Virus record (IMG/VR): IMGVR_UViG_3300036770_007945
Location: 64,001 to 128,000 of that record
DNA: 64,000 bases
Origin: a virus
Lineage: Duplodnaviria; Heunggongvirae; Uroviricota; Caudoviricetes
Direction: 5' to 3' (one strand)
The translations under genes and the position numbers were made by a program. Below the pieces are notes generated by a model that saw nothing but the letters and a program-made list of their open reading frames with translations, searched no databases and was not told the origin of the DNA. Below, in pieces: positions 11,245 through 45,561 of the stretch (the first letter of the stretch is position 1; every line of letters begins with the position of its first letter).

Positions 11245-12336
11245 ATGCAAAAAATATATATCAAGGATAAATTATATATACCACAAACCCTTATTCCAGA
11301 TCTCAGCCTTTTACAAAAACATTGGGATTTACCTGTTTTTGATGAAAGTCTCTGTAAAAGGTGTGATAATCGTCCACATAGAATTAACAATCAATGTCGT
11401 ATTTGTCCAGGATTACAGCGCATTGTGCGGATGTGGGCGGTCAAGGAAGGAAATAATGGCTTGAAATACTATACATTACCTTGCGGGCAGATTAAACACA
11501 CACTTGCTCGATTGAATATAGATATTAGTAACGTTCAATTTGAAGATCTGCGAGTTGATTTACCTTTTATACATCCTCTAAAATTCACAGGGACTCTCCG
11601 CAGAGGCGAGTTTGTTAATGGAGTGCCTACTGCTAACCAAGAATATCTTGTTCAAAAATGGCTTGAAACTGGTTACGGTTTAATTGAAGCTCCTCCTAGA
11701 ACAGGTAAAACAGTCTTAGGCACTTATTTATCCTGCTTTCTTCAAAAGAAGACAATCATTACTGCACACCAAGAAGAGCTCTTAATGAACTTCTATAAAA
11801 CTTATGTCAATATGACTAACCTTAAAGAGCTTCAAGAGCAGACTGGTAAACATATTGTAAAGGTAATTCAAAAAATAGAAGATTTTGAGCGAGAGGATTA
11901 TGATGTTATTTTAGTCAACTATCAAAAGTTTATTCGTAGTAGCGGGGAAGAGCGCATCGAAAAATACTTAAAATCTAAATTCGCTTTTGTTATTGTTGAC
12001 GAGTGTCATCAGGGGGCTGCGGAATGTTTTTCAAAATTTTTACACAAGTTAGCCCCCAAGTATACACTAGGTCTGAGTGCTACTCCTAAAAGAAAGGATT
12101 GTGTTGAAGAGAGGACACAAATCTATACGGAACAGGGGGTCATGTCTATGGGGGACTTGGTAGATTTACTTAAGCAGGGGCAAAAAATTCGTGTATATTC
12201 AAAAAATCTTGAAACTAATGAAATAGAGTTAAAACCTATTCTAGAAGTGCATGAAAAATATACTAACAGAGTTAAAAAAGCGCTTTTAAGTAATCGGGTT
12301 AGTCTTCTTACGACTACTGACCACTTTCTCTACTAA
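11245..12336 (+). CDS. SF2 (UvsW-like) helicase N-terminal half fused to split-intein N-fragment
   Basis: APPRTGKT (motif I), IVDECHQ (II), GLSATPKRKD (III), then CVEERTQIYTEQG...TTTDHFLY* (intein block A Cys1, block B TxxH). Confidence 0.9.
   Translation: MQKIYIKDKLYIPQTLIPDLSLLQKHWDLPVFDESLCKRCDNRPHRINNQCRICPGLQRIVRMWAVKEGNNGLKYYTLPCGQIKHTLARLNIDISNVQFEDLRVDLPFIHPLKFTGTLRRGEFVNGVPTANQEYLVQKWLETGYGLIEAPPRTGKTVLGTYLSCFLQKKTIITAHQEELLMNFYKTYVNMTNLKELQEQTGKHIVKVIQKIEDFEREDYDVILVNYQKFIRSSGEERIEKYLKSKFAFVIVDECHQGAAECFSKFLHKLAPKYTLGLSATPKRKDCVEERTQIYTEQGVMSMGDLVDLLKQGQKIRVYSKNLETNEIELKPILEVHEKYTNRVKKALLSNRVSLLTTTDHFLY
12100..12333 (+). mobile_element. Split intein N-fragment (IntN, 78 aa)
   Basis: Begins at Cys (TGT 12100) right after motif III; HINT-like VYSKNLETNEIELKPI; TTDH; stop 3 codons after the His. 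Confidence 0.85.
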
Positions 12337-12510
12337 CTTCTTTATTGAGAAGCAAGAGGTTTCTGATGTAAGGCTTGCTTTGTTTATTTTTAAAAGGTTT
12401 TTAGGATTGTTTATCTCTTGTATTTCTTTTCTGGCAGCGTCAATGAGTTTGATCTGCTTGTTAACATAATTTAATACAATCTGTATTCCTTCCTGATTTA
12501 TCTTAGTCAT
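12286..12510 (-). CDS. Hypothetical protein, convergently overlapping IntN
   Basis: 74 aa ORF following the minus-strand structural operon. Confidence 0.35.
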   Translation of the reverse strand: MTKINQEGIQIVLNYVNKQIKLIDAARKEIQEINNPKNLLKINKASLTSETSCFSIKKLVEKVVSSRKKTNPIT

Positions 12511-12555
12511 TCCTTATCCTTATTTACGCTTTAACTAATAAAGTATTTTTCGTTA

Positions 12556-12882
12556 TTAGCTGCCAACAAAGAAAACATCTAAAGCATTCGTGACATCTAA
12601 AGATGTATTTTCTACAGCAATATTAGAATAAGTTCCTGTAAGTAGCAAGGTTTCCGTAATAGGTAACGTTTGCACTACATTATTTGTAGTAGTAATTTTT
12701 ATGACCGCGTTATTAGAACTCTTAATAAAACAAACCTTCTGAATAGCCCCTATTGTGTAAGTTTGTGTTCCAAGAACCTGAAAATTTTCTTGTCGTATCC
12801 TCGAGAGGTTACTAAAGTAGTTCGAAATATTAAAGCTACTCAACTCGAAAGTTAATTTAAGGCTTAAATCTTGTATTGACAT
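12556..12882 (-). CDS. Hypothetical virion-module protein
   Basis: 108 aa beta-rich ORF in the structural operon. Confidence 0.5.
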   Translation of the reverse strand: MSIQDLSLKLTFELSSFNISNYFSNLSRIRQENFQVLGTQTYTIGAIQKVCFIKSSNNAVIKITTTNNVVQTLPITETLLLTGTYSNIAVENTSLDVTNALDVFFVGS

Positions 12883-12929
12883 TGTTAACTTTAATCTTTA
12901 AGGTTCACGGTTTGTAATTTTTAACAAAC

Positions 12930-13400
12930 CTACGCACATTTTAAATTACGTTTTAGAAGGTAAATATTGTTTCTCGTATGAGTTTCTGCAATATTGCCTA
13001 AAAAATTAACTACTGCTATATTTGAACCGTATTGTGTGTTCAAAGCATTAACTGTTTTTAAAACATCTTCTTCTAGTAGAAGGGCGCAAGTTTTAGCTTC
13101 TGCATCGTTCTTACTACAAACACCTTTTAATAAAGGGAAAGCTGAATACGAACCTTTAATGACATCCAAAGTCTCTAAACAACAATCTTCAGTATTTAGT
13201 GCTAAAGCCATCTCTGCTACTGAATCTAATTCAGAGGAGACGTTTGAGTAAAGTTCTTTAAACAGCGCATGATCTTGACCAAAGAAGGCCCCTTTTGATA
13301 ACCAGTGTTTTGATAAATAGAATTGACTCAAGGCTGTTAATTTATATAATAAAAGATGCATATAATAATAATAATAATAGCGAACGTATACTATTCGCAA
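12930..13400 (-). CDS. Dps/ferritin-like protein (likely start at Met14, 13361)
   Basis: HWLSKGAFFGQDHALFKELY...ELDSVAE matches the Dps ferroxidase signature HW..G..F...H..F...Y......D..AE. Confidence 0.75.
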   Translation of the reverse strand: MRIVYVRYYYYYYMHLLLYKLTALSQFYLSKHWLSKGAFFGQDHALFKELYSNVSSELDSVAEMALALNTEDCCLETLDVIKGSYSAFPLLKGVCSKNDAEAKTCALLLEEDVLKTVNALNTQYGSNIAVVNFLGNIAETHTRNNIYLLKRNLKCA

Positions 13401-13444
13401 CTGTTTGAGATAAAATTAGATTGATTATCTATAAAACTTTTTAG

Positions 13445-14206
13445 TTATCTTTGAATAGTTAGTTTAATAACGCTTGGTGGAGATATAGTTGCGGCATCAC
13501 TAAAACCTGTTGTAGAGCTTATAGGGTTTACTGGGAGCACTTCGTCTTTTATTTGCCCTTCTAAAGTTTCCGGTTGTATTGCAGCTCTATCTATAACATT
13601 ACCTACTTGAAGATCTATAGTAGCCGAAAATTCCCCTATATAAATTTTTCCTTTTTCATCGGATAGGTCTAACTCTGGGTAACTTAAATCTTGGGTATTC
13701 GGATGAAAATGAAAAGGGAAGGGTGTTCCTGAATCATCTGCATCAACAACCCCTGAAAGTTTATTTGGGTAAAGTTCATACCAAGCAAGCAAGAATTCCT
13801 CGTATTGACTTGGTTCATTCGTAACAAACCAAAAAGTAATATTTAGGGTAAGAGGAAGTTTTATTGCTGTTTTAATTCTTGTATTGTCTAGTGCATTAGT
13901 AGCATATTCAATCTCATTCAACTGCGGGTAAGGTCTAGCAGTAATGTTGGATAAAGCTAAGCCTTTGTTTCTAGAAACTATTGAGCCAACGGTTTGTTCC
14001 TTGAGACTGGTTGATTTAATTTGATAACAAATAAAGGGGTAGTTAATCGTTGCTTCTTCTTTAAGAAAAGCTTGATTAAACATATCTTGAGGCGTATAAA
14101 CCTGAGTATAGGAATAAACATCAAAGGACATAGACCTTTTTAAAAATAGGTCTAAATTGTTTAGAATTTTTGTAAGGGTATTTCTTATGATAGAATTACT
14201 CATCAA
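13445..14206 (-). CDS. Putative neck / tail-completion protein
   Basis: Position downstream of the capsid genes; beta-rich pattern (LTLNITFWFVT, IYIGEFSATIDL); no firm motif. Confidence 0.3.
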   Translation of the reverse strand: MMSNSIIRNTLTKILNNLDLFLKRSMSFDVYSYTQVYTPQDMFNQAFLKEEATINYPFICYQIKSTSLKEQTVGSIVSRNKGLALSNITARPYPQLNEIEYATNALDNTRIKTAIKLPLTLNITFWFVTNEPSQYEEFLLAWYELYPNKLSGVVDADDSGTPFPFHFHPNTQDLSYPELDLSDEKGKIYIGEFSATIDLQVGNVIDRAAIQPETLEGQIKDEVLPVNPISSTTGFSDAATISPPSVIKLTIQR

Positions 14207-14546
14207 CTTCTTGGGTTAACTCAATTGTAATATCGTCACTTCTAAAGCTTCCTCTATTGAAAGAACTTTTTACATAATCTCTACTAGGAGTTACTCTGCT
14301 GCGAACTGTAGAAGGTAATCGTAGACCTGAAGGAGAACCACTGTAGAATGTTTTTCCATTAGTGTCTAAAGTGTCTAATTCGATTTCAAAGTCACTATCA
14401 AAAGTTTTCGTCTTAAGAGAATCCTCAAAGGCTTTATCAATATCGCTTTCTAACAAGCGAATTCTCTCATCAGTGTATTGTGAAGAGGCTGTTCTATTCT
14501 TACGGACAGCAACATGTGTTTTAAACTTTGTTTCAAATCTACGCAT
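14196..14546 (-). CDS. Hypothetical virion-module protein
   Basis: 116 aa ORF coupled to the next gene; contains RTASS. Confidence 0.5.
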   Translation of the reverse strand: MRRFETKFKTHVAVRKNRTASSQYTDERIRLLESDIDKAFEDSLKTKTFDSDFEIELDTLDTNGKTFYSGSPSGLRLPSTVRSRVTPSRDYVKSSFNRGSFRSDDITIELTQEVDE

Positions 14547-14583
14547 TTCTTTGACTGGTTATTTATTTATAATTCTTATATAA

Positions 14584-14614
14584 CAAAACGGAGGTTGATG
14601 AAGCCTCCGTTTTG
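14584..14614 (-). terminator. Intrinsic terminator after the major capsid gene
   Basis: CAAAACGGAGG(C)TT-loop-AACCTCCGTTTTG stem directly downstream of the MCP stop. Confidence 0.75.
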
Positions 14615-14640
14615 GGTAATGTGGTGATATTCTTTTAAAG

Positions 14641-15753
14641 TTAGCTAATCAAACCCTTAACAACAGAACGTCCGTTAGAGACGATCATTGAAAGGATTTC
14701 ATGATTTAACCAACCTTTACCAGTTTTGCCATTTTCAGTCATAGCTGGATTGTATTCAGTAACACTTAAACCAGATCTATCTGAATAAGCGCCATGGAAT
14801 TCAGGATTACCTATAACATAAGCTTCACCTGCATTTAAAACTTTTTGAGTTGTAACGCGAGTAGCATCAGTTATAACGGTTAAACCTGCAATCTGTCCTA
14901 ACATACCGGTTTCCAAAATTTGATAGTAGTGGAATAAGTCGATAGAAGTTGCAAGTGGGCCGTAGAAGTCTTTAACCAAGTTAGCAGCAATCAATAAATA
15001 TTGAGCTGGGATGTTGGTGTTGTCTAATACCGCACGCATATTACCGATAGCTGAAGCAGTCAAACCTGTATTATAAATTTGAAGTTCATTACCGCTATTT
15101 AATGCACCGATAGTAGCGTCAGCAAGAGCTTTCCAACGTTTGTCTTCCTGAACTAAAACAGCTTCTTTCATTTCTGCTAGTTTTCTTTCAGCAAAGTCAG
15201 GAGCAGCCTGATGAACTTCAATAGCATCCATGAAAACTTTCACGATGATTTCAAACTCTTGTAAAAAGAATTTTTTCTCGCGTGTAACAACTGGAACAAC
15301 GTTTACACCGCCAGCATCGTAAGTATAACCAATGATAGTTTTAGTATCGTTAGTTAACATAGGAAGTTGACCTTGAGTTACTGGAATTTGTTTCAAAAAC
15401 TTACGAGCAAAGCCATCGCGTTGTGCGTATTCTTGAACCATATTAGTCATAGCAGCAACAGTTGTTTCTGCACTTCTCTTGTCATTGCTTTTAATAGCAG
15501 CTAACAATTGATTGTTCAAAGCTTTCAAAGCAGCTTTTTCAGCACTACCTTGATAGTTTTTGGTTGAAGCGACAGCTTGACCAGATGATAATGCTTGTAA
15601 GAACTGTTTTTGTCCCATAGCAACATCAGCTTTATCAGTAGCATTCATTTCACCTTTTGAGTTGAATAAGTATTCAGCTGAACCTTCGCGCTTCAACTCA
15701 GATGGATGTAGGCCCGCTTGAGCTTTATATCCTTTATTAAAATCTATTTTCAT
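14641..15753 (-). CDS. Major capsid protein (HK97-fold)
   Basis: 370 aa; synteny terminase-portal-protease-scaffold-decoration-MCP; strong terminator; RDGFARKFL, LVQEDKRW, GMLGQIAGLTVITD, GWLNHEILSM patterns typical of large-myovirus MCPs. Confidence 0.8.
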   Translation of the reverse strand: MKIDFNKGYKAQAGLHPSELKREGSAEYLFNSKGEMNATDKADVAMGQKQFLQALSSGQAVASTKNYQGSAEKAALKALNNQLLAAIKSNDKRSAETTVAAMTNMVQEYAQRDGFARKFLKQIPVTQGQLPMLTNDTKTIIGYTYDAGGVNVVPVVTREKKFFLQEFEIIVKVFMDAIEVHQAAPDFAERKLAEMKEAVLVQEDKRWKALADATIGALNSGNELQIYNTGLTASAIGNMRAVLDNTNIPAQYLLIAANLVKDFYGPLATSIDLFHYYQILETGMLGQIAGLTVITDATRVTTQKVLNAGEAYVIGNPEFHGAYSDRSGLSVTEYNPAMTENGKTGKGWLNHEILSMIVSNGRSVVKGLIS

Positions 15754-15784
15754 ATTTTATAAAAATTTGTTGAGTTGTTATTAA

Positions 15785-16513
15785 TTAGCTACGAAGTTCA
15801 ATAGTCAAGAAAGGCTTGCTTACTGTTGGGATCTCTCTAACTAAAGCGTTTGGAATAGAAGTTCCAGAACCACTCTTAGTTAAGTATCCAGTAGTAGCAA
15901 TCTTAATTGCGTTTGAATCTGACCAATCAGAAGTTGGATCATAGTTAGTAGTAACGATAATGCCTCTTGTGATGACGTTGATAACACCTAAGCTTGAAGT
16001 GTTATTCAAACCTGGGCGAATGTCGCCAAAGAAATCACGAGCTTCAAAAGCTGAAGGCGTGTAGCTGTAAACAACTTGAATTGATTTACCGCTGTGCGTG
16101 CCATCTACTGTAACGATATTACCAGAAACAGTAAATTGCGTAGCATTTACTGTATCAGCATGATAAGTCAATACAGTTGAAACTCCTAAAGCCGTAGTTA
16201 CAACAACTCTCATTTCTGAACCTGGAGCTACTGGGGTCTTCGAAAGAGTGAAAGTGTAAGGACCAGAGGCAGGAACAGTTCCTGCATCTACTTTGTTCAA
16301 TTTAGTTGGGAGAACACGGTGTTGGTAATAAGAAATACCTGCAAAAACGTCAGTGCTAGCGGTAGAGCCTTTTTTAACTTTAGCAAGACCACCCTCTAAA
16401 GGATACTTGAAAGTTAAAGCTAGACCTTCTTCGATAGCTGAGCTTAACTCGCTTTCAGCGAGATTGTAGGATCTTACTACTTCAGCACCAAACCCATAAC
16501 CTGGAAAAATCAT
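15785..16513 (-). CDS. Capsid decoration / cement protein
   Basis: Beta-rich 242 aa protein directly upstream of the MCP (EEGLALT, FAGIS, GVINVITRGIIVTTNYD). Confidence 0.55.
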   Translation of the reverse strand: MIFPGYGFGAEVVRSYNLAESELSSAIEEGLALTFKYPLEGGLAKVKKGSTASTDVFAGISYYQHRVLPTKLNKVDAGTVPASGPYTFTLSKTPVAPGSEMRVVVTTALGVSTVLTYHADTVNATQFTVSGNIVTVDGTHSGKSIQVVYSYTPSAFEARDFFGDIRPGLNNTSSLGVINVITRGIIVTTNYDPTSDWSDSNAIKIATTGYLTKSGSGTSIPNALVREIPTVSKPFLTIELRS

Positions 16514-16540
16514 AGTTGGAAAAATTTAAATTAAAATAAA

Positions 16541-18196
16541 TTAAAGCGTTCCTTTTCGAATCGCTTCGATAAGGGTGCTTACAACACTATCTTCTGATAC
16601 TGAAGAAGTGTTGGCTTCTACTGAATGCTCGAAAGTAGCTTCAGTTTTTTGTGCTGTATTAGAAACAAGAGCAGAGTCAGCCTTATAAGCAGCTTGATTC
16701 ACGAAGTCTCGGACTTCTTTTCTTGCATCGGGTGTCTTCTTAAATAAAGACAAAGCTTCTTCAAAGATTGTAGCATAATCTCTGAGAATGCCTTTCACAA
16801 AAGCTTCTTCAATTAAAACTTCACTATTCTGTATTCCTACAGATTTTAAAGCTTCATTTAAAATTGCTTTTGTTGAAAGAGATTTTTTATGACCTAAAGA
16901 GCTTTTCTCTTGTAGGTTTTTACAATACATGACTGCAGCAGTAGAGAAAGCTTCTCTAAAGTCATTAAACATCTGTTTTTCTTTAGCTTCATAAACATCT
17001 TGCAAGGCTTTAGTGGCTTTGACTACATTAGAAGCTACAGCCGCTTTCTTGGTAATTATAGGAGCACTAATTGCTTTAATTCCAAAATCCTTCAATCTAA
17101 AGTTTGTTTCTTGAGATTCGCAGGCTGTTAAAGCTGTGTGTAAACTTTGCATAAATAAATTTCGATCGGTAAAGATCGCTTTAACTCCATCAGACGCGCG
17201 TTGAAAAGATGCTGTTGCAATAGGAACATGCTTAACCATTAAGTAGTAGGTAGGTAACTCTTCTCTAACTGAAGAAGCAACCAACTCTATTGAATCACTA
17301 TATCTATCATCAGCTAAGAGGTTAGCAAGATTATAAGATAATTGTTTATCTTGTAGAGCTTCTTCAACGGTTTCTGGAAGTGAGTCTAGAGTTTCATGCA
17401 ACTCAGAAGGTATCTGTGAAACATCTAAATCCTCTGGTGCAATAATTACAGACTCAGGATCGTTTATTTCAATTGAAACTTGAGGATTGTCTAAAGAAGT
17501 GGAAGGCTCTGAATATTCAATGCTGTTATCTATTTCGTCTTCGCCAGGCGTTTCAATTCCTACGGGAAGAGTTTCTATATCTTCAAGAGTATCCATAACA
17601 AGCTGAATATCGTTATCTTGTAAACTATCTTCTAAATCAGAGTCATCAGAACTATTTATTGAAGTATCGTTAAAGGACTCTGCACAATGTTCTGCGCTGA
17701 TGTCTTCTAGTGTTGCTGAAGTCTCTTTTGTTACTTCTTCTTCTGAATCATTATCATTTATTTTAATAATAATGCCTTCGGATTCATCAGATTCATCCAT
17801 GTCAATAACATCTTCATCAGATTCATCCATGTCAATAACATCTTCATCAGATTCATCCATGTCAATAACATCTTCATCAGATTCATCCATGTCAATAACA
17901 TCTTCATCAGATTCATCAGATTCATCCATGTCAATAACATCTTCATCAGATTCATCCATGTCAATAACATCTTCATCAGATTCATCAGATTCATCCATGT
18001 CAATAACATCTTCATCAGATTCATCCATATCGATGTCTTTTATATTAGTTTCCATATCAATATCGATATCCTCGAGCGTATTATCAGAATTTGGAGCAAA
18101 ATCGTCTTCTTCGTCGCGAAGCTCTAGAACGATGTCATCTTCTTGAGTTTTCATATCACGGGCCCTTGTATATTTTTGGAATTTACGGTTAAGCAT
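16541..18196 (-). CDS. Acidic scaffold-like prohead protein
   Basis: Lies between protease and decoration/MCP; very acidic N-half with tandem repeats and a helical C-half. Confidence 0.5.
   Translation of the reverse strand: MLNRKFQKYTRARDMKTQEDDIVLELRDEEDDFAPNSDNTLEDIDIDMETNIKDIDMDESDEDVIDMDESDESDEDVIDMDESDEDVIDMDESDESDEDVIDMDESDEDVIDMDESDEDVIDMDESDEDVIDMDESDESEGIIIKINDNDSEEEVTKETSATLEDISAEHCAESFNDTSINSSDDSDLEDSLQDNDIQLVMDTLEDIETLPVGIETPGEDEIDNSIEYSEPSTSLDNPQVSIEINDPESVIIAPEDLDVSQIPSELHETLDSLPETVEEALQDKQLSYNLANLLADDRYSDSIELVASSVREELPTYYLMVKHVPIATASFQRASDGVKAIFTDRNLFMQSLHTALTACESQETNFRLKDFGIKAISAPIITKKAAVASNVVKATKALQDVYEAKEKQMFNDFREAFSTAAVMYCKNLQEKSSLGHKKSLSTKAILNEALKSVGIQNSEVLIEEAFVKGILRDYATIFEEALSLFKKTPDARKEVRDFVNQAAYKADSALVSNTAQKTEATFEHSVEANTSSVSEDSVVSTLIEAIRKGTL
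17778..18032 (-). repeat. Coding tandem repeat, 8 units of DMDES(DES)DEDVI (30/39 nt)
   Basis: GATTCATCCATGTCAATAACATCTTCATCA repeated near-perfectly, with 9-nt GATTCATCA variants. Confidence 0.95.
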
Positions 18197-18318
18197 ATAT
18201 TTTTGTGTCTTTTACATTTAGAAACGTTAAATAAACCATTTAAACGTTTCGGTATAAAATTAATTAAGTATTTCTAATACTTAAACTGTTTGGTTTAAAA
18301 TTAGTCAGAGTCTTATCT

Positions 18319-19107
18319 TTAGCTAAGTTTGAGGAGATATTCATTTTGAGCAGACACGTAGGCGGGAGTCTCTACAGCACTAACTTCAAAACCACATACA
18401 TTGACTGTTTCATAGTAGCCTAGTTTTTTTCCATGCTTGGTATCAAAGACGGTAAAACTAGGATTATTGATATCTACGTGATTGCACCCCCCAGCTTCAA
18501 AACTAGTTCCACATATACTGCATACATAGTCGTCTACATATGCACCCATACTGTAGGTTGTTAGATCTCCTCTCAAAATCCTATTGTATAACTGGGTATC
18601 TTTGGTTCTATCAAAACCACATAAGGTAGTAAGTTTGTATAAATTTCCTACGGAATTTTTAATCGGCGACATAGAAGTTGCGAATACAACACCTTTAGCT
18701 TTTTCGTAATCTTCGTTTGCATGCTCGTAGAATGTAGGAGCACCTTCCCATGTTTGATAAGCTACTCTCTTGACATGAGGATTTGGATTAAAAGAGGTTA
18801 AAGCATGATAAGGAAAAGCTACACCATTTCTGTTCGGCAAGTCCGAAGGCATAATAATCACAGGAACGCAGATATAATCTTCTAGCTTAGGGGATATCTT
18901 GTATTGTTCTGCAGCCAAAGCTAACCAATTTCCTATAGTCGAGGCATTCATAGTCTCTGTCACTACACTAGCAGTTGATTTTTTTAAAGGTCTAGTATTA
19001 TTACCCTTACGCGTTATAGAATACATATCAATAACGTTATCCGATTGCTCTCCTGGATGACTGAAGCATGAATATTTTCCTACTGTTCTATTTTTATGTA
19101 TTTTCAT
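18319..19107 (-). CDS. Prohead (capsid maturation) protease
   Basis: PNRNGVAFP, FYEHAN...AKGVVF, YSMGAYVDDYVCSICG...CNH, FEVSAVETPA: HK97-like protease with a Zn-ribbon insert. Confidence 0.8.
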   Translation of the reverse strand: MKIHKNRTVGKYSCFSHPGEQSDNVIDMYSITRKGNNTRPLKKSTASVVTETMNASTIGNWLALAAEQYKISPKLEDYICVPVIIMPSDLPNRNGVAFPYHALTSFNPNPHVKRVAYQTWEGAPTFYEHANEDYEKAKGVVFATSMSPIKNSVGNLYKLTTLCGFDRTKDTQLYNRILRGDLTTYSMGAYVDDYVCSICGTSFEAGGCNHVDINNPSFTVFDTKHGKKLGYYETVNVCGFEVSAVETPAYVSAQNEYLLKLS

Positions 19108-19114
19108 ATTTAGG

Positions 19115-19339
19115 TTACTTTGTTAATGAGATATCAAACTCTTTTTGAAGCTGTTTCATTAAATTTTTATATCTCGGGCTATTTAAAAACATGGCAATGT
19201 TTCTCGCTTGCTTTACCTTTGCTTGAGGACTTAAAGTTAATGCCTTCTGAATAGGTTTAGGGTCAAACACTACTCTCCTACCAGTAACAAAACTTTTACA
19301 GACTTGTTCTATATTGTTTGTAACTGTTCCTCCTAGCAT
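19115..19339 (-). CDS. Hypothetical protein
   Basis: 74 aa ORF in the head operon. Confidence 0.5.
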   Translation of the reverse strand: MLGGTVTNNIEQVCKSFVTGRRVVFDPKPIQKALTLSPQAKVKQARNIAMFLNSPRYKNLMKQLQKEFDISLTK

Positions 19340-19345
19340 GTATGT

Positions 19346-19966: not shown

Positions 19967-20048
19967 ATATTGTCAAATTCTAAAGTGTTTATGTATATGT
20001 TAAAAGAGTAAACTTATATAAAATTAAGTAATAAAGCTCCTAGCCATT

Positions 20049-22163: not shown

Positions 22164-22203
22164 TAAGTTTTAATCCTAGTTAAATTGTTATCTCTTATTT
22201 GTC

Positions 22204-32474: not shown

Positions 32475-32495
32475 AATATTAATTAAGGTTAAAGG

Positions 32496-35159: not shown

Positions 35160-35330
35160 AGATTCGTGAGTTAACTGTTAATATGTAACTACTATATTAA
35201 TCCTTGAGAAAATAAAAGCTATAAGAGATTCCGTAAATACTGAAGGTTTTTTATTTTTGTTTGTTTTATAAATTTTCGTAAAAATTTCTATCTTAATTGT
35301 CAGTTTATAGCTAAGATAGAGGTTTAAACT

Positions 35331-35630: not shown

Positions 35631-35694
35631 AAGTTTGCTTGATTTTTATAATTACGAAGAATTTATAATCCTCTTGTAGTAGAAAATTAGAAAG

Positions 35695-35945: not shown

Positions 35946-35961
35946 TTTGCAGCCTGAATAT

Positions 35962-37329: not shown

Positions 37330-37432
37330 TAAGAATTTTTATAATGCAACTAGTATTTTAATCTATAGATTTTTTGCATTTAATATACAGAAAATTAGGT
37401 AATTAAAAACCTCTTAGGTTTAGGTGCTTATT

Positions 37433-38143
37433 CTAATCTTCATAATCTTCATAATCTTCATCATCAGTTTCATCATCGTGTGTAGGATCAGACCACTTCA
37501 TTCCATTTATAGTTAATATTCCTCGGATTTTATCAGAGGTTACGACTTCATACCACGAAAAGTCCAGGCATGTAGAGCCAATCGTCGACGGTTTTTCAAT
37601 TATGCCCTTCTTTAAAAAAGTCTCTTTTAAGTATTTAGTCTCCTCCTCTGTTATAAGTCTGTTCAATTTTAAATCAATAATCGCTTCATTATCTCCATGT
37701 TGTTTTCCCCCTGCATCATACTCAGAACCTAGAGCCTCCCCGTAATTTTCGAACTTATAGTCAACATCTACTATTTCAATACTTTTACTCTTCAGGAATT
37801 CAAAAAGAGGTTTGTTGTATTCTGGTAATTTAGAAAGAACTTGTTTTTGCTCTAGTAATGCCACTTTAGAATAACCAATAGTGTTAAAAGAAAGATCTTG
37901 GTCGTCGAGGCTAGACTCCACGTCTTTATAGTTCTCTTCAATACCCGCTTTAATATACTTTTCAATCTTAGCGTTAACAGCAGAGTCACTCAAACTAGCT
38001 TTAGTTTTAAGAGTTCTAGATTTAAAGCTTTTAGACTTAAAGCTTTTTTGCGGTTGAGAACTATACTCTTGAAAAGCAACCTCCTTTTTAATAGCTGCTT
38101 GAATTTTTAGAGGTAAATCTGATAATTTAATATATTTAGTCAT
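37433..38143 (-). CDS. Leader-family protein
   Basis: MTKYIKLSDLPLKIQAAIKKEV leader; acidic C-terminus. Confidence 0.65.
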   Translation of the reverse strand: MTKYIKLSDLPLKIQAAIKKEVAFQEYSSQPQKSFKSKSFKSRTLKTKASLSDSAVNAKIEKYIKAGIEENYKDVESSLDDQDLSFNTIGYSKVALLEQKQVLSKLPEYNKPLFEFLKSKSIEIVDVDYKFENYGEALGSEYDAGGKQHGDNEAIIDLKLNRLITEEETKYLKETFLKKGIIEKPSTIGSTCLDFSWYEVVTSDKIRGILTINGMKWSDPTHDDETDDEDYEDYED

Positions 38144-38295
38144 AAGTTGTTTACTGTTATTTGTCAGTGTTAGTTAGTAAGTAGTTACTCATAAATTAAA
38201 ATAAGAGGCTAACTATTATTTTAATTTATAAAATTTTTACTCTTAGTATGTAGAAAATTAGAAAACATTTATTATATTTTTCGTCTAGACTTCTC

Positions 38296-38919
38296 TTACT
38301 TAGTTTTTAAAATTTCTCCTACAAACAAGCTACAAAATCTATCAGTATCAAAGAATATCGGTTTTGCAAAGTCTACGTAGTAATCTGCTCCAATCTTCTC
38401 AGCAATTGCAAAGTAACCGATAAAATCGTGGGTGACCTCTTTAGGGTTCACATTGATACATATCGAACCTAAAGAATTTACGGCGTTCGGCTGATATATT
38501 TTAATGTTTTTACTATCGGTTTTTTTTTCGGATGCAAGATGTGAGAGTTTGCGACGACTCATTATGCGGATCTTCATTACTTCCTGAGAGTAAAGTTTTC
38601 CTGGATTTATGATAATATAATAATCTGCTTTAGAACTTGTAATCCCGCTAGGATCTCCGTTAGCCCGAGAGATCTCTATACTATATAATAAAGAGGACAT
38701 AATTTTTAACTCGAAAAGCAAGTCTTTTAATCTGAAATCAAAGCTTGCATCACACCCTTGAGAGAATTCCACATCCTTTTCTTCTAAGTTATAAAGTATC
38801 TTAAAATTCTCAACAAGAACTTGTTCAACCTGCTTTGAGATAGAGTAATCTTTATTGATATATAAATCTTTTAAACAAAATATCAAATTCATAAAATCCT
38901 TAATTTCGGTAATTCTCAA
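38296..38919 (-). CDS. Putative PD-(D/E)XK nuclease
   Basis: TTG start; DASFDF...FELKI motif and SGITSSKADYY segment. Confidence 0.45.
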   Translation of the reverse strand: MRITEIKDFMNLIFCLKDLYINKDYSISKQVEQVLVENFKILYNLEEKDVEFSQGCDASFDFRLKDLLFELKIMSSLLYSIEISRANGDPSGITSSKADYYIIINPGKLYSQEVMKIRIMSRRKLSHLASEKKTDSKNIKIYQPNAVNSLGSICINVNPKEVTHDFIGYFAIAEKIGADYYVDFAKPIFFDTDRFCSLFVGEILKTK

Positions 38920-38933
38920 AGTTTTCTAAAGTA

Positions 38934-39704
38934 TTAGTCATACCAAAAGGCAAGCCATTTTTTCGTGTTTAAGACTTTCCCAATTATAATATTATAATTG
39001 TGTGTAACACTATTAAGCTTCTTCTTTACCTCGTTTAGCCTTTTTAAATCTTTAATGAATAAAAAAACATACTGAACTGGATTCTCAAAATAAATACAAG
39101 AGGATAAACTTTTATGTATTTTTCTCAAAGTTCTTCCAGTGTCTACTAAGTCATCTATTACAAACACCATATCTAAAGATTTTCTTCTAATCTTTTTTGT
39201 TAAGTTATTTAACTCGCGTTTAAGTTTCAGTAAGCTTTCTTTATCCTCAACATCCTTGTCTTTGTAAGTATTCATATTTACATACAATGTGTGAATTTTT
39301 ATCTCACCTGTTGCTAAAGATTTATTCTTTGAAATCCACTTACTTATCTGGTAATCTATCAAAGTTGTAGGAATAGTTCCTCCTCGCACTACCGCGATTA
39401 AACATATATGGAATGTCTTAGACGAGTTTACTCTTCTGTGTGGGAAAAAGGCAGCATAAGAAGAAGAAGGAAAGCATTCAAGAAGGTCTCCAGAAACTTT
39501 AGAAAGTCCCGACCAATCTCTGAGTATTTGTATTTCTTCCTTAATACCATCTAAGACTTTATCTACAGCTTCTAAATAAAGTTCTAAACTGACTTTATAA
39601 GGAAAAGTTTTTCTATAGAGTAAAGATAGTTTTCTCTTTCCTATCTTATAATACAAAACTATTTTTTCTGAAACAGATTTAACTCTCTTTTTTTGAAATA
39701 ACAT
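38934..39704 (-). CDS. Type I phosphoribosyltransferase
   Basis: IAVVRGG and the PRPP-binding loop VFVIDDLVDTGRTL. Confidence 0.85.
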   Translation of the reverse strand: MLFQKKRVKSVSEKIVLYYKIGKRKLSLLYRKTFPYKVSLELYLEAVDKVLDGIKEEIQILRDWSGLSKVSGDLLECFPSSSYAAFFPHRRVNSSKTFHICLIAVVRGGTIPTTLIDYQISKWISKNKSLATGEIKIHTLYVNMNTYKDKDVEDKESLLKLKRELNNLTKKIRRKSLDMVFVIDDLVDTGRTLRKIHKSLSSCIYFENPVQYVFLFIKDLKRLNEVKKKLNSVTHNYNIIIGKVLNTKKWLAFWYD

Positions 39705-39717
39705 AAATCTCCTATTA

Positions 39718-40728
39718 TTAAAATGTGTTTTTGATAGTTATATAATCTTCGTAACCTTTCTTACGAAGTTTGCAAGAAGGACACTCTCCACAACCATAAC
39801 CCCAAGGATGTCTAAACTCACGATTCCCTATATAACAAGTATGACTATCTTCTAAAACTGTATTTAGGATACCAACTTTTTCTGCTAGATAGAATGTTTG
39901 AGCTTTAGTTAAATACATTAACGGCGTATGTATTTTAATAAAGCCTTCTAAGAAAAGTGTAGGTAATTCATTGCTTAAATTTGCAAAAATTCTCCGTAGA
40001 AAGTTTCCCTCGTAGACATTACTTAATAATTTAGGTTCATAGGAGGTTCCTTGTAAGATATAATAAGGAATCTTTCTATCGTCTCCTTGAATCTTATATG
40101 CGGATCTATCGGTTTTAACCCAACTATCTCTTACAATCTCTCCTACACCACCAAAGAAATTTTTGATTTCCTCTATAGCTGGGTGTCTTATTAGTATGAA
40201 GTCCTCATTGTGTATTGTGCAAGTATTATCTACTAAGATAGCTCGAATTTCGTTGAGGCTTAGGCGAGAAATATTTGTTGCAGCAAACAAAGAACTCTCT
40301 AACTCATCTATAAAAAGTCTTCTACAATCAGGATAGCCTGCGTCATCAGTTTGGCAAGTTCCTGTCACGAGGTTTTCTAAACCTGCTTTCTGTGCATAAG
40401 TGTTTGCTAAGGATAATAAGATTAGATTTCTATTAGGAACAAAGCTTGCAGGCAGCGTTTTCAGCCGTGAGTGTTTTACAGTTACATCTCCTCCTACTGA
40501 GGTTAGTGCACTATCACAGATATCTTTTAAGAAAGAAATATCTACTACTGTTCGCTTAATACCTAAATCCTTACAGATTTTCGCTCCTTGTTCTAACTCT
40601 ATTGAGTGTTGTTGTCCGTAATTAAAACTTATAGCCTCTACGTAATTAAATTGTTGTTTAGCCCAACCAAGACAGGTTGTAGAATCTTGTCCTCCTGAGA
40701 AGGTCACTAAAGCTGAAGAATTTTTCAT
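39718..40728 (-). CDS. queC: 7-cyano-7-deazaguanine (preQ0) synthase with a ~110 aa insertion
   Basis: SGGQDSTTC, FNYGQQH, FVPNRN, YPDCR, TPLM, SHTCY...CGECPSC. Confidence 0.93.
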   Translation of the reverse strand: MKNSSALVTFSGGQDSTTCLGWAKQQFNYVEAISFNYGQQHSIELEQGAKICKDLGIKRTVVDISFLKDICDSALTSVGGDVTVKHSRLKTLPASFVPNRNLILLSLANTYAQKAGLENLVTGTCQTDDAGYPDCRRLFIDELESSLFAATNISRLSLNEIRAILVDNTCTIHNEDFILIRHPAIEEIKNFFGGVGEIVRDSWVKTDRSAYKIQGDDRKIPYYILQGTSYEPKLLSNVYEGNFLRRIFANLSNELPTLFLEGFIKIHTPLMYLTKAQTFYLAEKVGILNTVLEDSHTCYIGNREFRHPWGYGCGECPSCKLRKKGYEDYITIKNTF

Positions 40729-40771
40729 AATTTTTATTAATTATAGTTATTATTATTACTTACTAAGCGTT

Positions 40772-41698
40772 TCAAAAATTTTTATTTACAATACTTCTAA
40801 AAGCTGCAATATTATACTTTATAAAAGTTTCCTGTGTTATATCTTGTTTTTGGATTAAGGTTTTCATCTTTTGTTTATCTTTATAAAGCAATCCGAACTG
40901 CTTACTATAAGGAATCTCTTTCAACCCATGCAGAACTGGAGAGCTTGTATCTATAGTATCTACAATCTTTTCTAAACTTATATTATCTTTTTGATATTGT
41001 AGAAACTCAAAAAGTAAATCTACGCCTAAAAAATGATGTTTACGATCTTCTCGTAGCTCTCCGGTTTGCACGAGGAATTTAATGAAATCTACTCTTCCAT
41101 TTCGCGGCACCACGATCTTGGTTAAGTCTATACCACTATAATATAACACTCCTTGCTGCATTATTAAGTTACTCCACTCTTGAGCTTCTACGCGCTCACT
41201 TTCTGTATAATTCTCAGTGATAAAATCTGACAAGTATTCCGATCTCACTAACTCTCTATCTACAGATAAATCTACAGGAAGATCGTAAGGAATTGCAACT
41301 TTCTCAAACATAGAGGTTAATTCTCGATAACATAAAAATTGCTCTTCAAGAGTTCTACCTTGAACGACTCCTATTGGAGTTGCTTCTATTTTCTCTACCT
41401 CTATAAGCTTCAACCAAGACTTAGCTGCTTGTAGAGTCTTATCTTTCTCAAAGAGATGGTCTGGCACTACGAATTCAGTCGGTCTTATGGCCTTGATGTA
41501 TTTTAAATAATCTTCATCTGCCATAGGAAAACCTTCCTCGAAGGTTCCGCAATCAAGTATTTTAAATTTAGTATCTACACAAGCATGTTTAAAATACTTT
41601 TCGTCTTGTGCAGCGATAGTAGAAATATAGTAGTTATAATCTGTTAGACTCTCAACAAGTCCTGCTATACTGAGAGGGTGTTCGTGCGCTATTTTCAT
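40772..41698 (-). CDS. TGT/DpdA-like TIM-barrel protein (candidate deazaguanine transferase)
   Basis: ILDCGTF, VVPD, IGVVQG, HFLG and IDTSSP correspond to TGT-fold motifs; embedded in the queC/queF/folE cluster. Confidence 0.6.
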   Translation of the reverse strand: MKIAHEHPLSIAGLVESLTDYNYYISTIAAQDEKYFKHACVDTKFKILDCGTFEEGFPMADEDYLKYIKAIRPTEFVVPDHLFEKDKTLQAAKSWLKLIEVEKIEATPIGVVQGRTLEEQFLCYRELTSMFEKVAIPYDLPVDLSVDRELVRSEYLSDFITENYTESERVEAQEWSNLIMQQGVLYYSGIDLTKIVVPRNGRVDFIKFLVQTGELREDRKHHFLGVDLLFEFLQYQKDNISLEKIVDTIDTSSPVLHGLKEIPYSKQFGLLYKDKQKMKTLIQKQDITQETFIKYNIAAFRSIVNKNF

Positions 41699-42297
41699 AA
41701 GGTCTTTAAGTTTAAATTATTGTAAATGTAAGTCACTCGTTCTTCTAAATCTTCCATACACAGTAGTTTTATATTATATTTTTCTTTATATTCCTCATAA
41801 AATTCTAAGAATAAAGTATTTATTCGTTCTCTACTAGTCTCATCCATTGCAAACTTATCTCTATCTATAAAACTAATCGAAGGAAGTGTAGGAAGTATGT
41901 ATATAATACTATAAGGTTTTAAATCTAAAAGATTTAAAACTTGTCTTTCTATACCTTGATAATCTTGGAGACTCAAACTCTCTTGCTCGTAAAAATACTT
42001 ACTATAGATTAAAGTATCTACAAAACCTCTATCTTTCAGTATCAAACTATTTCGGCAACTGTCATAACTATTTAGTATTGCTTGTTCTCTTTGTATTAGA
42101 AGGCTCTGTTTCTCTAAAAGATCGATATTCGCAAGCTTAATATCATTAAAAGCCGAAGGTGTTAAAACTAACTCTTTATCTAAAGATTTAAACTCTCCAT
42201 ACTTAACAAGTAATCTATTTATTAAAGTAGTTTTTCCAGTGCAGTGACTTCCAGAGAAGACTATAATATCGTTGTTATTATTACGTTCTAGACACAT
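41695..42297 (-). CDS. Nucleoside monophosphate kinase (AAA_28 / TMPK-like)
   Basis: FSGSHCTGKTT, DRGFVDTLIY; 4-nt overlap with the downstream gene. Confidence 0.8.
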   Translation of the reverse strand: MCLERNNNNDIIVFSGSHCTGKTTLINRLLVKYGEFKSLDKELVLTPSAFNDIKLANIDLLEKQSLLIQREQAILNSYDSCRNSLILKDRGFVDTLIYSKYFYEQESLSLQDYQGIERQVLNLLDLKPYSIIYILPTLPSISFIDRDKFAMDETSRERINTLFLEFYEEYKEKYNIKLLCMEDLEERVTYIYNNLNLKTL

Positions 42298-42347
42298 ATT
42301 ATTTTTTAATGTATTATATTTTTAATCATACTCTCTCTTTACTATTC

Positions 42348-42941
42348 TCAATTAAAGAGATCCGGGTAATTACCCTTAAAGAAAGATATCCAGGCTTCTA
42401 TAGAAGTCTCTTTCAAAGTATTATAGTAAGTCTCTCTTAGAGTGCTACTAGAATTTATACTTTTCGATATCGCTGTATAAACTGGACCATTATCCAATTC
42501 AGCTGTGCATCTATGGACAATACTACCAACAACTTTTAAACTTTTTGAAAAAGCTTTCTCTTGTGGATCCTTACCTTTCAAGTCTGGATACATAGTTATT
42601 AAGCCTGGATGTCCATTATAGATCTCAAATCTCTGACAAATACTCGCTGGTATAATTCTTAAATAACCATGTAAAGTGATTAAGTCGCTTTCTTGAAAAA
42701 CCTTTTCATAGTCAAATTCGTTTTGTTTAAACTCAGGTAATTTCCTAACTAAAGGAGTATTCGTATCTTTATCTAGTAAACTTACTAACTCTTCTACTGT
42801 TTTAGTAGAAGAGTCTTCTTTTTTATTAGTAAAAATGTAGTCAGGGTAGCGATTAAGAACTTTACTTATTGCCACTATCTCTGAACCTGTTTGAGAGAAT
42901 AAAGCAACCCACCTCTGTTTTCTTTGTTTAGAGTTAGTCAT
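42348..42941 (-). CDS. PurN-like formyltransferase (DpdN-like)
   Basis: ALFSQTGSE, LHGYLRII, NGHPGL...LKGKDP, GSIVH, LDNGP. Confidence 0.85.
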   Translation of the reverse strand: MTNSKQRKQRWVALFSQTGSEIVAISKVLNRYPDYIFTNKKEDSSTKTVEELVSLLDKDTNTPLVRKLPEFKQNEFDYEKVFQESDLITLHGYLRIIPASICQRFEIYNGHPGLITMYPDLKGKDPQEKAFSKSLKVVGSIVHRCTAELDNGPVYTAISKSINSSSTLRETYYNTLKETSIEAWISFFKGNYPDLFN

Positions 42942-42947
42942 GTATGC

Positions 42948-43877
42948 TTATTGTTGAGCTGTTCTTTCAAACAGATAATCTACATTGTTGTAATTATTAA
43001 CTACTTTATCTAAAACCTCCTGCGATGATGCTCGGATACTATGTATATCTAGCCCTCCTCGTCGATTGTAGATATTCGCTACTAATAACTCTTGACAATT
43101 GTAACGGTTCATTAAAGTATCAAACAACAGTTCTGTAATATTTTCGTGGAAGTGTTGAGCATCTCTCATCGAAAACACGTATTTAGCTAAACCTTCTAAA
43201 GAAGGTAGAGTTTTACCCTTCATGTATATATAACTGTTACCTGTATCTTTTTGACGTGTAATCTCACAAAGACTTCTTAGATTTGTTGTATGAAAAGTTA
43301 ATGTATCTTCATTTCCGGACGCTTCATCTAATAAGGAGGTATCTTCTTTAAAAGTGTCGATTTTAAAATTTTTTTTGTCTATATTTGTGAAAGGTATTTT
43401 AAAAATAGGATTTAACTTAACTAAACCACAGTTATCTTCAGCAAGATGTAACTTTACTTGCACGTCTGTCTGTAAGCTTGTAGATAAAGCTTCTTTAATA
43501 ACTCTCTCTACTTCCTCTACACTTGCAAATCGCTCTAAATCGAAAGAGTTTAAGAATAGTTTGTGAGATTTAGATTCTACCATTGCATAAGAAGTGTGTG
43601 GATACGTAACTTTAAGAATTCCTGTAACTGGTTGCCCAGAACTGCTTAAGAAAGACATCTCGTAAGCATGCCAGACTTCATAACCAACAAACTTTCTAAC
43701 GTCAATCTTATTCTCTTCTCTACCTAGAACTCTTGGGATAGCAACCAGTAAAGAAGTATCGTGTTTATCAGGTGTTAAGTAAGGAGCCATAAAGCCTCCG
43801 TCTGAAGTTCGACCTAAATGTTTCCCTGCTATATCTTTAACACTTTGTTTTTTAATCTCGTTTATATTTGTTTTCAT
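42948..43877 (-). CDS. queF: NADPH-dependent preQ0 reductase (two-domain QueF)
   Basis: WHAYEMSFL, VESKSHKLFLNSF, LRSLCEITRQKD (catalytic Cys/Asp), HFHE, YNRRGGLDI. Confidence 0.9.
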   Translation of the reverse strand: MKTNINEIKKQSVKDIAGKHLGRTSDGGFMAPYLTPDKHDTSLLVAIPRVLGREENKIDVRKFVGYEVWHAYEMSFLSSSGQPVTGILKVTYPHTSYAMVESKSHKLFLNSFDLERFASVEEVERVIKEALSTSLQTDVQVKLHLAEDNCGLVKLNPIFKIPFTNIDKKNFKIDTFKEDTSLLDEASGNEDTLTFHTTNLRSLCEITRQKDTGNSYIYMKGKTLPSLEGLAKYVFSMRDAQHFHENITELLFDTLMNRYNCQELLVANIYNRRGGLDIHSIRASSQEVLDKVVNNYNNVDYLFERTAQQ

Positions 43878-43894
43878 ATGAACTTTTTTTGAAA

Positions 43895-44560
43895 TTATTT
43901 GTTTTTAATTAAGTTTAGAAATTCAGCTCTCAAAGAAGATTCTGTTTTGAATCTCCCTCCTAACTTACTTGTAGTTGTTGTTGAATTCGTATCGTTTACT
44001 CCTCGCATAGCAACACAATAATGTTTGCCGTTCAAGACTACTGCTACGTCTTCTGTGCCCAGAATAAAAACTAAAGCGTGAAAAATTTGTTCTGCTAATC
44101 TTTCTTGCACTTGTGGACGTTTGCAAAAGAACTCTACAATTCTATTTATTTTTGACAATCCTAATACCTTGTCTTTAGGAATATAGCCGACATTAGCTAA
44201 ACCATCTATCACTACAAAGTGGTGTTCACAGTTAGAAATAGCAGTGATATTTTTCTCAACAACAACCTCATCGTAACGCATTTTATTTTCTATGACGGTG
44301 CATTTTGGAAAATTCTTATAATCTAACCCGGAGAATATCTCTCGAACAAACATCTTTGAAACCCTCTTTGGCGTATCCATTAGAGAATCGTCTTTTAAAT
44401 CTAAACCTAAAATCTCCATAATCTGTTTAAAGTTTTCAGTGATCTTTTCGATCTTTTCTTCTTCAGTATAATTACTTGCAACAGTCGGGGTTTCTACTCC
44501 ACAAGCTTTTAAATAATCTTGCACTTTTTTTCCTAAATCGAAATCGGTTTTATCTTTCAT
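43895..44560 (-). CDS. folE: GTP cyclohydrolase I
   Basis: DTPKRVSKM, SNCEHHF, GLSKINRIVE...RPQVQERL, HYCVAMRGV. Confidence 0.97.
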   Translation of the reverse strand: MKDKTDFDLGKKVQDYLKACGVETPTVASNYTEEEKIEKITENFKQIMEILGLDLKDDSLMDTPKRVSKMFVREIFSGLDYKNFPKCTVIENKMRYDEVVVEKNITAISNCEHHFVVIDGLANVGYIPKDKVLGLSKINRIVEFFCKRPQVQERLAEQIFHALVFILGTEDVAVVLNGKHYCVAMRGVNDTNSTTTTSKLGGRFKTESSLRAEFLNLIKNK

Positions 44561-44631
44561 ATGTATAATAATTTAAGTTAGTAATAATTCTTATTTTAAA
44601 TCTTTTTATTTCGAGAAGCCACTAGTTTAAG

Positions 44632-45561
44632 TTAAAAAACTTCAGAAGCATTAAACTTTGTAAAGTAATCTATTGCACTCTCACTCTTAGCTTTTAACAA
44701 CTCATAAGCGATTTTTAAGCTCTCTTCGTTTAATTTATAACGCACAGTATAGTTGTTTGCCACGTTAGCTACTAAATTCGGTTTAATTTCTTTTAAAAAT
44801 AAAGATTTGAAACAAGCATGTGATAAATTTGTATTGTCAACGAAAATCTTCACTACTGGTTGCTTCTTATTCAAGTGTGGGGTGCAAGGTCTATTAGATA
44901 GTTGCAAGAACATCGGACTTCCTGCCTCTACTGTTGCAGTTTCCGGTATTATTGAATATAACATTGTTGGTATTTTAAGATCTATGCCTTGTTTAATCAT
45001 CGACCTCATAGAAACTAATACTTTGCAAGAACCTTCGTCTACTCGCTTCAACACCTCACTCTTCTCTTTAGAAAGCATTGCCCCATAAAAGCCTGAAGCG
45101 ATTGCATTTTCTGGAGTAGTTAAATTTCTTTTAACCGCCTCTTTATTTATTAAATCTAATAAAGTTCGAAGATGTTCTACTCTGTCTGTAGGTATAATTA
45201 TGCAAGGATGTTCTTTTAAATCTATAAATAAATGCTCAAGGAGTAAATTATTTTTTGCTTCAGATTTCAACATATTTGATATACTGTGCGCCCACAATTT
45301 AGACTCTTTCCAAGATACTCCTGTATTTACCACTTGTATTTCAGGCACCAGAGAAGTTGTTCGACTAACAACAACAACCGGCCCTAAGATCTCCTGGATT
45401 ACAAATTCAAGGCAGTTGTGAGATAATATATCTACGTTTCCAGCCTTAATAAAATAATTGTGGTTATCCTGAACGGTTATGTCTAAAACTCTTACAGGTA
45501 TATTCACTACTGTTTCATTAAGCAGCACTTCATGTATTTTTGTTTCGTTTACAGGTTTCAT
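44632..45561 (-). CDS. Split-intein C-fragment fused to the SF2 helicase C-terminal half
   Basis: VLDITVQDNHNYF...ILSHN|C intein blocks F/G, then LEFVIQEILGPVV, DRVEH, KVLVSMRSMIKQGIDL (RecA2 domain, motif V). Confidence 0.9.
   Translation of the reverse strand: MKPVNETKIHEVLLNETVVNIPVRVLDITVQDNHNYFIKAGNVDILSHNCLEFVIQEILGPVVVVSRTTSLVPEIQVVNTGVSWKESKLWAHSISNMLKSEAKNNLLLEHLFIDLKEHPCIIIPTDRVEHLRTLLDLINKEAVKRNLTTPENAIASGFYGAMLSKEKSEVLKRVDEGSCKVLVSMRSMIKQGIDLKIPTMLYSIIPETATVEAGSPMFLQLSNRPCTPHLNKKQPVVKIFVDNTNLSHACFKSLFLKEIKPNLVANVANNYTVRYKLNEESLKIAYELLKAKSESAIDYFTKFNASEVF
45415..45561 (-). mobile_element. Split intein C-fragment (IntC, 49 aa)
   Basis: Own ATG with an in-frame TAA 3 codons upstream; ends His-Asn followed by Cys+1 (TGC at 45412-45414). 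Confidence 0.88.

Follow-up and report, generated by a model that had tools for sequence, protein, structure and literature searches.

The stretch of DNA analysed here (the window, 64,000 nucleotides) covers bases 64001-128000 of the 140,400-bp Caudoviricetes record IMGVR_UViG_3300036770_007945. Direct terminal repeats are present in the record, and CheckV rates it 100% complete. It contains two genes that each encode one half of a superfamily 2 (SF2) helicase together with one fragment of an intein: an N-half gene of 363 amino acids (aa) at 11245..12336 on the plus strand, and a C-half gene of 309 aa at 44632..45561 on the minus strand. The gap between the two genes is 32,295 bp (12337..44631) and is coded almost entirely on the minus strand; the N-half is a lone plus-strand gene, and the C-half is the first gene of the long minus-strand block. 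Each half occurs once in the 140,400-bp genome, in which a single intein C-terminal element was detected.

The N-half protein begins with a cysteine-rich, zinc-ribbon-like domain, continues into the first RecA domain (RecA1) with helicase motifs I (APPRTGKT), II (VDECH) and III (SATP), and ends in the N-terminal intein fragment (IntN). Its extein portion, residues 1-285 (11245..12099, plus strand), is matched by Pfam ResIII at residues 131-283 (E 8e-17), with the Walker A, DExH and SAT motifs present, is matched by XPB/Rad25 profiles, and is colinear with contiguous relatives. Directly after the extein end, GLSATPKRKD, the reading frame continues with Cys286 and 77 further residues that end in TTTDHFLY, followed by the stop codon. 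This 78-aa IntN (12100..12333, plus strand) has a cysteine at its first position (Cys1) and the T-x-D-H of intein block B, and terminates three residues past the block B histidine. The NCBIfam model intein_Nterm matches it over residues 286-362 with 22.0 bits (cut-off 24.5). A whole-genome scan with TIGR01445 missed the window IntN, which the protein-level scan detects, and the Pfam Hint models were not reached by the window proteins.

The C-half protein is arranged in the complementary order, with the C-terminal intein fragment (IntC), the +1 cysteine, the second RecA domain (RecA2) half of the helicase and a C-terminal tail. IntC is 49 aa long (45415..45561, minus strand), contains block F (DITVQDNHNY) and block G (SHN), and is followed directly by the Cys+1 at residue 50; intein_Cterm matches residues 27-50 with 23.1 bits, above its cut-off of 15.6. 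The open frame reaches two codons upstream of the ATG and no further. The C-extein, residues 50-309 (44635..45414, minus strand), starts with CLEFVIQEILGP. It has a weak match to Helicase_C at residues 104-196 of the C-half protein (20.5 bits, below the cut-off of 23.5), and it can be aligned along its length with the C-terminal portion of contiguous helicases.

When N-half residue 285 is linked in silico to C-half residue 50, a protein of 545 aa (285+260) results. This spliced product was compared with six contiguous, intein-free relatives, among them the 582-aa helicase of Rhizobium phage RHph_I42, and is 36-44% identical to them over 520-528 aa, without a gap in the 15 columns on either side of the junction. 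The intein insertion point lies directly behind motif III, and two of the six intein-free relatives have a native cysteine at the +1 position. An earlier note on this sequence had proposed that a naturally split intein cuts an SF2 helicase after motif III. Its coordinates, the 78- and 49-aa fragments and the 545-aa product were all correct on translation of the open reading frames (ORFs) and in-silico joining, and the cut itself is borne out by the matches to intein hidden Markov models (HMMs) at both ends and by the gap-free junction. The distance between the halves and their separate, oppositely oriented units were also as described there, and the contiguous intein-free relatives that it named as a check were found (RHph_I42, 582 aa; P0020, 555 aa). 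We consider it highly probable from these sequences that the two genes carry a naturally split class-1 mini-intein, with the helicase halves dispersed in a phage genome and trans-spliced to the 545-aa enzyme, and the helicase is most likely joined post-translationally.

The window is one member of a clade with the same split. Searches of a large protein collection from independent metagenomes gave a clade of at least 13 N-halves and at least 14 C-halves (47-69% identical), including those of the window; the 12 further N-halves are 363-371 aa long and 47-65% identical, and the 13 further C-halves are 300-317 aa long and 51-65% identical. The intein_Nterm model matches all 13 N-halves (best E 2.4e-12) and intein_Cterm all 14 C-halves. 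Across the 13 N-halves, Cys1 (Cys286) and the block B residues T357, D359 and H360 are invariant, as are D27, I28 and T29, D32-Y36, S47, H48 and N49, and Cys50 (the +1 residue) across the 14 C-halves. Fragment length is similarly constrained, with an IntN of 77-78 aa in every case and an IntC of 48-59 aa. For the four lineages with DNA, synonymous sites are saturated (synonymous differences per site, pS, 0.72-1.09), and nonsynonymous differences per site (pN) amount to 0.28-0.39 for IntN, 0.18-0.25 for the core of IntC and 0.16-0.30 for the exteins. As read from these substitution values, the intein codons are under purifying selection and have been for the whole existence of the clade. No DNA-level match to these genes was found among cultured phages, and IMG/VR yielded no relative of the C-half and N-half matches at 26-61% identity; the large protein collection was the sole source of close relatives.

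Separation of the halves is likewise shared by the relatives. Contig SRR3569300_3904 (50.9 kb) carries an N-half at 9528-10625(+) and a C-half at 38201-39109(+), 27.6 kb apart on the same strand, and contig ERR14794625_2079 (29.2 kb) carries them at 4834-5934(+) and 22209-23120(-), 16.3 kb apart on opposite strands. In sample SRR21894925, the N-half lies on a 14.3-kb contig and the C-half on a 17.1-kb contig, with the partner absent from 7-10 kb of flank. In several other samples and assemblers, the partner half was never found within 3 kb; there the N-half keeps a constant setting, with a divergent Dda/PIF1-type helicase on one side and minus-strand genes converging on it from the other, and the C-half always heads either a FolE-QueF-formyltransferase block or a DnaB-TerL block. 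Distance, orientation and neighbours thus differ between split relatives, and the opposite strands seen in the window are not a fixed property of the arrangement.

By its motifs and profile matches, the helicase is an SF2 enzyme of the XPB/Rad25/ResIII type. The clade profile matches XPB and XPBII chains (E 5e-10 to 1e-7), and 12 of the 13 members match repair_heli_XPB, far under its equivalog cut-off. Among phages, the protein groups with the "DNA repair helicase" of the jumbo phages PaBG, Erwinia Y3-like phages, Dickeya JA11/JA33, Ralstonia RSL1 and Rhizobium phages. The HMM comparison suggested earlier against UvsW and ResIII models succeeded in part: ResIII and XPB/Rad25 were matched and UvsW was not, and a UvsW identity was dropped as no family search supported it. 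In the contiguous 555-aa relative P0020, the gene lies in a replication module, between primase and DnaB.

Structural comparison was carried out on the intein fragments as clade profiles, since single-sequence searches of solved structures with IntN and IntC returned nothing significant. The clade IntN profile is most similar to NrdJ-1 (E 1e-6), followed by the DnaE split inteins (E 3e-6), and aligns to residues 1-74 of the DnaE IntN, where it ends. In total the intein is 127 aa long, with a split point that lies unusually near block B and is fixed across the clade. Complex prediction of IntN (residues 279-363) with IntC (residues 1-58), using clade alignments, gave a median score of 0.80 over three runs, compared with 0.01 for the best of three controls; the runs showed at least 92% contact agreement and a partner pLDDT (predicted local distance difference test) of at least 65. 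In a benchmark, 58 of 80 solved complexes and 2 of 110 mismatched pairs attained that mark. This pass denotes a likeness to solved split-intein complexes, which may stem from the predictor's memory of them, and does not independently prove binding. The 78+49-aa pair is a plausible candidate for a new orthogonal split-intein pair.

With these parts, splicing would follow the standard class-1 course. The N-half would be made as a 363-aa precursor and the C-half, separately, as a 309-aa precursor, after which IntN and IntC would associate into one HINT fold and protein trans-splicing would begin. An acyl shift at Cys1 (N-half residue 286) would be followed by transfer to Cys+1 (C-half residue 50) and by cyclisation of Asn49, aided by His48, and rearrangement to a peptide bond would then release the 545-aa XPB/Rad25-like SF2 helicase with the junction ...RKD-CLEF.... 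The spliced helicase would presumably act in phage replication or repair.

This helicase family is a hot spot for inteins, with three insertion sites, at motif I, at motif II and after motif III (P0138-P0148, L003:706-3096, P0012, P0137 and P0145). At motif I (Walker A; GK|C...HN|S/T), large contiguous LAGLIDADG inteins are found in P0138-P0148 and in Vibrio phage GR11A. At motif II (DExH; DE|C...HN|CH), a contiguous mini-intein is present in P0012, P0137 is a C-half of the motif II kind, and split versions with a nuclease-like gene between the halves occur in Yersinia phage fHe-Yen9-02 and Vibrio phage GR11A. The motif III site (RKD|C...HN|C) is occupied in the window clade, P0012, P0145 and Dickeya phage JA33, and all motif III inteins found are split. 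Some members carry two inteins. P0012 has a split IntN at the motif III site besides its contiguous motif II mini-intein, while in P0145, as in Vibrio phage GR11A, a large motif I intein is accompanied by a split intein.

These members can be arranged according to the gene-breaking model, in which, after fracture of the host gene, the endonuclease gene is lost and the parts are dislocated to separate loci (Dassa et al. 2009, PMC2677866). The intact stage is represented by the contiguous 582-aa gene of Rhizobium phage RHph_I42, and the fractured stage by Dickeya JA33, where adjacent halves with the RKD|C site flank a nuclease-like ORF. By its gene arrangement, the window clade is the dispersed state of that model, stage IV, in a virus. 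First, an intein would have invaded the conserved position behind motif III; fracture of the gene would have followed, as now seen in Dickeya JA33 with a nuclease gene between the halves; and the nuclease gene would then have been lost, with a rearrangement whose breakpoint lay between the halves moving them apart. A single inversion of approximately 12.3-45.6 kb of the window would make the C-half follow immediately on the N-half, with every gene between 11.2 and 54 kb then pointing in one direction, and the same-strand relative would require at least one additional event. In the most divergent split relative, the C-half lies directly upstream of a block of a 241-aa gene, DnaB and TerL, and this C-half-to-DnaB order resembles the helicase-to-DnaB order in the contiguous P0020; in the window, a further 17 kb, including a 7-deazaguanine cluster, lies between the C-half and the DnaB/TerL block.

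The ORF between the JA33 halves is unannotated, encodes 375 aa and lies on the opposite strand (L001:1953-3080 (+); record 129452-130579). It has a DUF7487 domain, a TnsA-like endonuclease N-terminal domain and treble-clef zinc fingers, and a homologue, fHeYen902_060, lies between the halves in Yersinia phage fHe-Yen9-02. It is probably a free-standing homing endonuclease of a PD-(D/E)xK type. No homologue of it was found in the window's genome, although an empty search of this kind is weak evidence.

Several observations weigh against the interpretation of the window genes as dispersed halves of a working split intein with this history. The intein_Nterm score of the window IntN is below the curated cut-off. 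The approximately 28 residues that follow block B in the DnaE IntN (the N4 region) are missing from the clade IntN, and the IntC profile starts only about 10 residues before the 36-aa DnaE IntC; with no N4 region and an IntC extended by so little, the completeness of the fold rests on prediction. No fused, contiguous motif III intein was found among the longer relatives, which carry the motif I LAGLIDADG intein instead. The window IntN and the JA33 IntN, although at the same site, have weak similarity (E 0.017), and the window IntN is closer to the motif II IntN of the Yersinia phage (E 1e-8, 28% over 76 aa). Descent from a JA33-like state is therefore a model, as is a common origin of the motif III inteins, and orthology of the window and JA33 inteins was dropped as the similarity is too weak. 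Finally, the record is a short-read metagenome assembly.

This last point bears on whether the halves could truly be adjacent, with a 33-kb segment inverted by the assembler, as the one inversion described above would join them and a metagenome assembly could contain such an error. At the 12.3-kb and 45.6-kb boundaries, however, there are no inverted repeats beyond chance AT-rich matches, and thus no sign of an invertible segment or of repeat-driven misassembly; the partner is never within 3-10 kb in relatives from other samples assembled with Logan, MEGAHIT or SPAdes; and two contigs hold both halves far apart. We regard misassembly as very improbable. That the ORFs are decaying, functionless remnants of a broken helicase gene has a still smaller probability, close to nil, as nothing beyond the broken state of the gene speaks for it. 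Across 13-14 diverged relatives, neither ORF is interrupted and their lengths stay constant; pN is far below pS, and all motifs are preserved. The earlier note had allowed for a second, full-length copy of the helicase elsewhere; there is none in the complete 140,400-bp genome, so that no other copy of this widely conserved helicase is available. Conservation across the clade and the independent assemblies together lead us to reject both of these readings. It is also unlikely, if less so, that the intein halves no longer splice and instead act as a non-covalent clamp that holds together a two-subunit helicase. The IntN is shorter than those of canonical split inteins and without the N4 region, and non-covalent assembly of a fractured phage enzyme is documented for Aeh1 NrdA (PMC3045599). 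Invariance of Cys1, the block B threonine and histidine, the penultimate histidine, the terminal asparagine and Cys+1 in 13 or 14 synonymously saturated sequences argues against a clamp, which would not need these class-1 splicing residues.

The separation itself could be adaptive, with the halves placed in differently timed transcription units so that helicase activity forms a post-translational AND gate, as the earlier note had suggested. The halves do lie in separate transcription units, with a near-consensus sigma70-like promoter match (TTGATA-16-TG-TATAAT, 11 of 12 positions; 11187..11214, plus strand) 30 nt 5' of the N-half ATG and the C-half heading the minus-strand block, and the separation has been kept across a diverged clade. 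The suggestion is not supported: three relatives lack this lone strong promoter, and neither in the window nor in those three is there a comparable site ahead of the C-half. The variable distance, orientation and neighbours fit neutral rearrangement; re-fusion is improbable once the halves are dispersed, so that persistence needs no selective advantage; and a requirement for both genes is trivial for any split gene. We therefore consider an adaptive AND gate unlikely, though slightly less so than the clamp. About the same low probability is given to the broader proposal that the dispersal is functional in this way, that the 78+49-aa intein without N4 represents a minimal kind of split intein that differs in structure and assembles by a pathway of its own, or both. 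A dispersed split intein that trans-splices is thus preferred, and the simplest account of its arrangement is that the genome was rearranged neutrally, as stage IV of the Dassa model predicts.

The region between the halves contains the genes for the major head protein, a protease, the portal, TerL, a DnaB-like helicase, an endolysin and an SbcC-like protein, and the 7-deazaguanine cluster. The claim that head, recombination and DNA-modification modules intervene thus stands for the window, with replication genes added; as given above, the opposite orientation of the halves does not extend to all relatives. The 7-deazaguanine cluster (FolE-QueF-formyltransferase-kinase, 38934-44560, minus strand) directly follows the C-half in the window, as it does in most close relatives, with either cassette orientation (L045, L048); more distant split relatives are without the cluster, and DnaB follows the C-half there. 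In a relative from SRR21894925, the second gene downstream of the C-half encodes a DnaB-like helicase of 628 aa (L056:8795-10681) with an Intein_splicing domain; that phage therefore has a second intein, located in its replicative helicase. The window DnaB (25608-26984, 458 aa) has no intein. The window TerL is distantly related (31-34%) to those of the PaBG/Erwinia/Dickeya/Ralstonia/Rhizobium jumbo-phage group. It matches Erwinia/Dickeya jumbo-phage TerL (for example MZ443777.1 2765-5356) in two pieces, with approximately 2.6 kb for approximately 640 residues, which suggests that the terminase genes of those phages hold an intron, an intein or another insertion.

Upstream of the C-half is a non-coding strand-switch region of 1 kb (45562..46550). 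Six perfect 22-bp tandem units, TTTTAGACATTTTATTTCAATT, are present at approximately 45718-45849, and a 32-nt inverted repeat (46271-46355, 88% complementary) lies 400 nt beyond them. No ORF, no tRNA and no Rfam family above threshold was found in this region; a known RNA, a tRNA or an endonuclease remnant was dropped as an explanation, as the search returned sub-threshold hairpin noise only. The repeat region could be an origin or a regulatory region. At the other locus, a 74-aa minus-strand ORF (12286-12510) shares 51 nt with the 3' end of the sequence coding for IntN, where relatives instead have a gene of 103-139 aa that begins directly after the N-half stop. A stand-alone response-regulator receiver protein of 126 aa (9414-9794, minus strand; Pfam E 1e-17) adjoins the Dda-like helicase near the N-half, and a response regulator 24% identical to it adjoins the C-half in a 173-kb relative (L045:2517-2903). 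At 24% identity, this gene was dropped as a synteny marker that would join the two half-contexts.

Cyanobacterial DnaE (Ssp/Npu) is among the closest known systems. It is also a split class-1 intein with Cys1, TxxH, HN and Cys+1 and without an endonuclease gene, and its halves lie in separate loci (Dassa et al. 2009, PMC2677866). It differs in that a polymerase on a cellular chromosome is split there and a phage helicase here, and in that the DnaE IntN is approximately 28 residues longer past block B and the DnaE IntC approximately 10 residues shorter. The fractured genes described by Dassa and colleagues (gp41-1, NrdJ-1 and IMPDH-1, among others; PMC2677866) resemble the window clade in being phage-type replication and repair genes with small split inteins. 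In these genes, neighbouring halves that point the same way enclose a free-standing homing-endonuclease gene, much as the earlier note had stated for most known phage examples, whereas the halves of the window clade are separated by 16-32 kb, on the same or on opposite strands, and no endonuclease gene was found. Dickeya JA33/JA11 (JA33_156 and JA33_155, "putative DNA repair helicase") has a helicase of the same family at 31% identity, split at the same site (RKD|C...HN|C). In JA33, by contrast, the two halves are neighbours on a single strand and have the ORF described above between them, and the IntN is approximately 95 aa long and includes the N4 region. Yersinia fHe-Yen9-02 and Vibrio GR11A likewise share the helicase family, a split intein and a nuclease-like gene between the halves, and the Yersinia IntN is the closest cultured-phage match to that of the window; both differ in that the split is at motif II and the halves are adjacent. 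A further phage case is jumbo phage MIJ3, with a PolB split intein and an HNH gene (PMC6892783). Full-text searches otherwise turned up work derived from the fractured-gene study and engineering papers, and nothing in which the halves of a split intein are dispersed in a phage genome; as their coverage is incomplete, this is weak evidence.

Separate loci are thus already known from cellular genomes (cyanobacterial DnaE), as are phage fractured genes with adjacent halves, and the splicing mechanism itself is standard. What appears to be new is the fixation, in a phage clade, of dispersed, endonuclease-free split-intein halves with an unusually short IntN. The finding also bears on annotation, where such halves are at present called as two unrelated genes, "helicase" and "hypothetical". 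For protein ligation, the clade offers candidate orthogonal tools, in the form of more than 12 naturally occurring versions of a Cys1/Cys+1 split intein of very small size (77-78 + 48-59 aa). For the gene-breaking model, stage IV had been illustrated solely with the cellular DnaE (Dassa et al. 2009, PMC2677866), and here one helicase family shows the intact state, the fractured state with a nuclease and the dispersed, nuclease-free state, which gives direct comparative support for the last step of the model. The comparison also shows that a host gene ceases to constrain rearrangement of the genome as soon as it carries a split intein.

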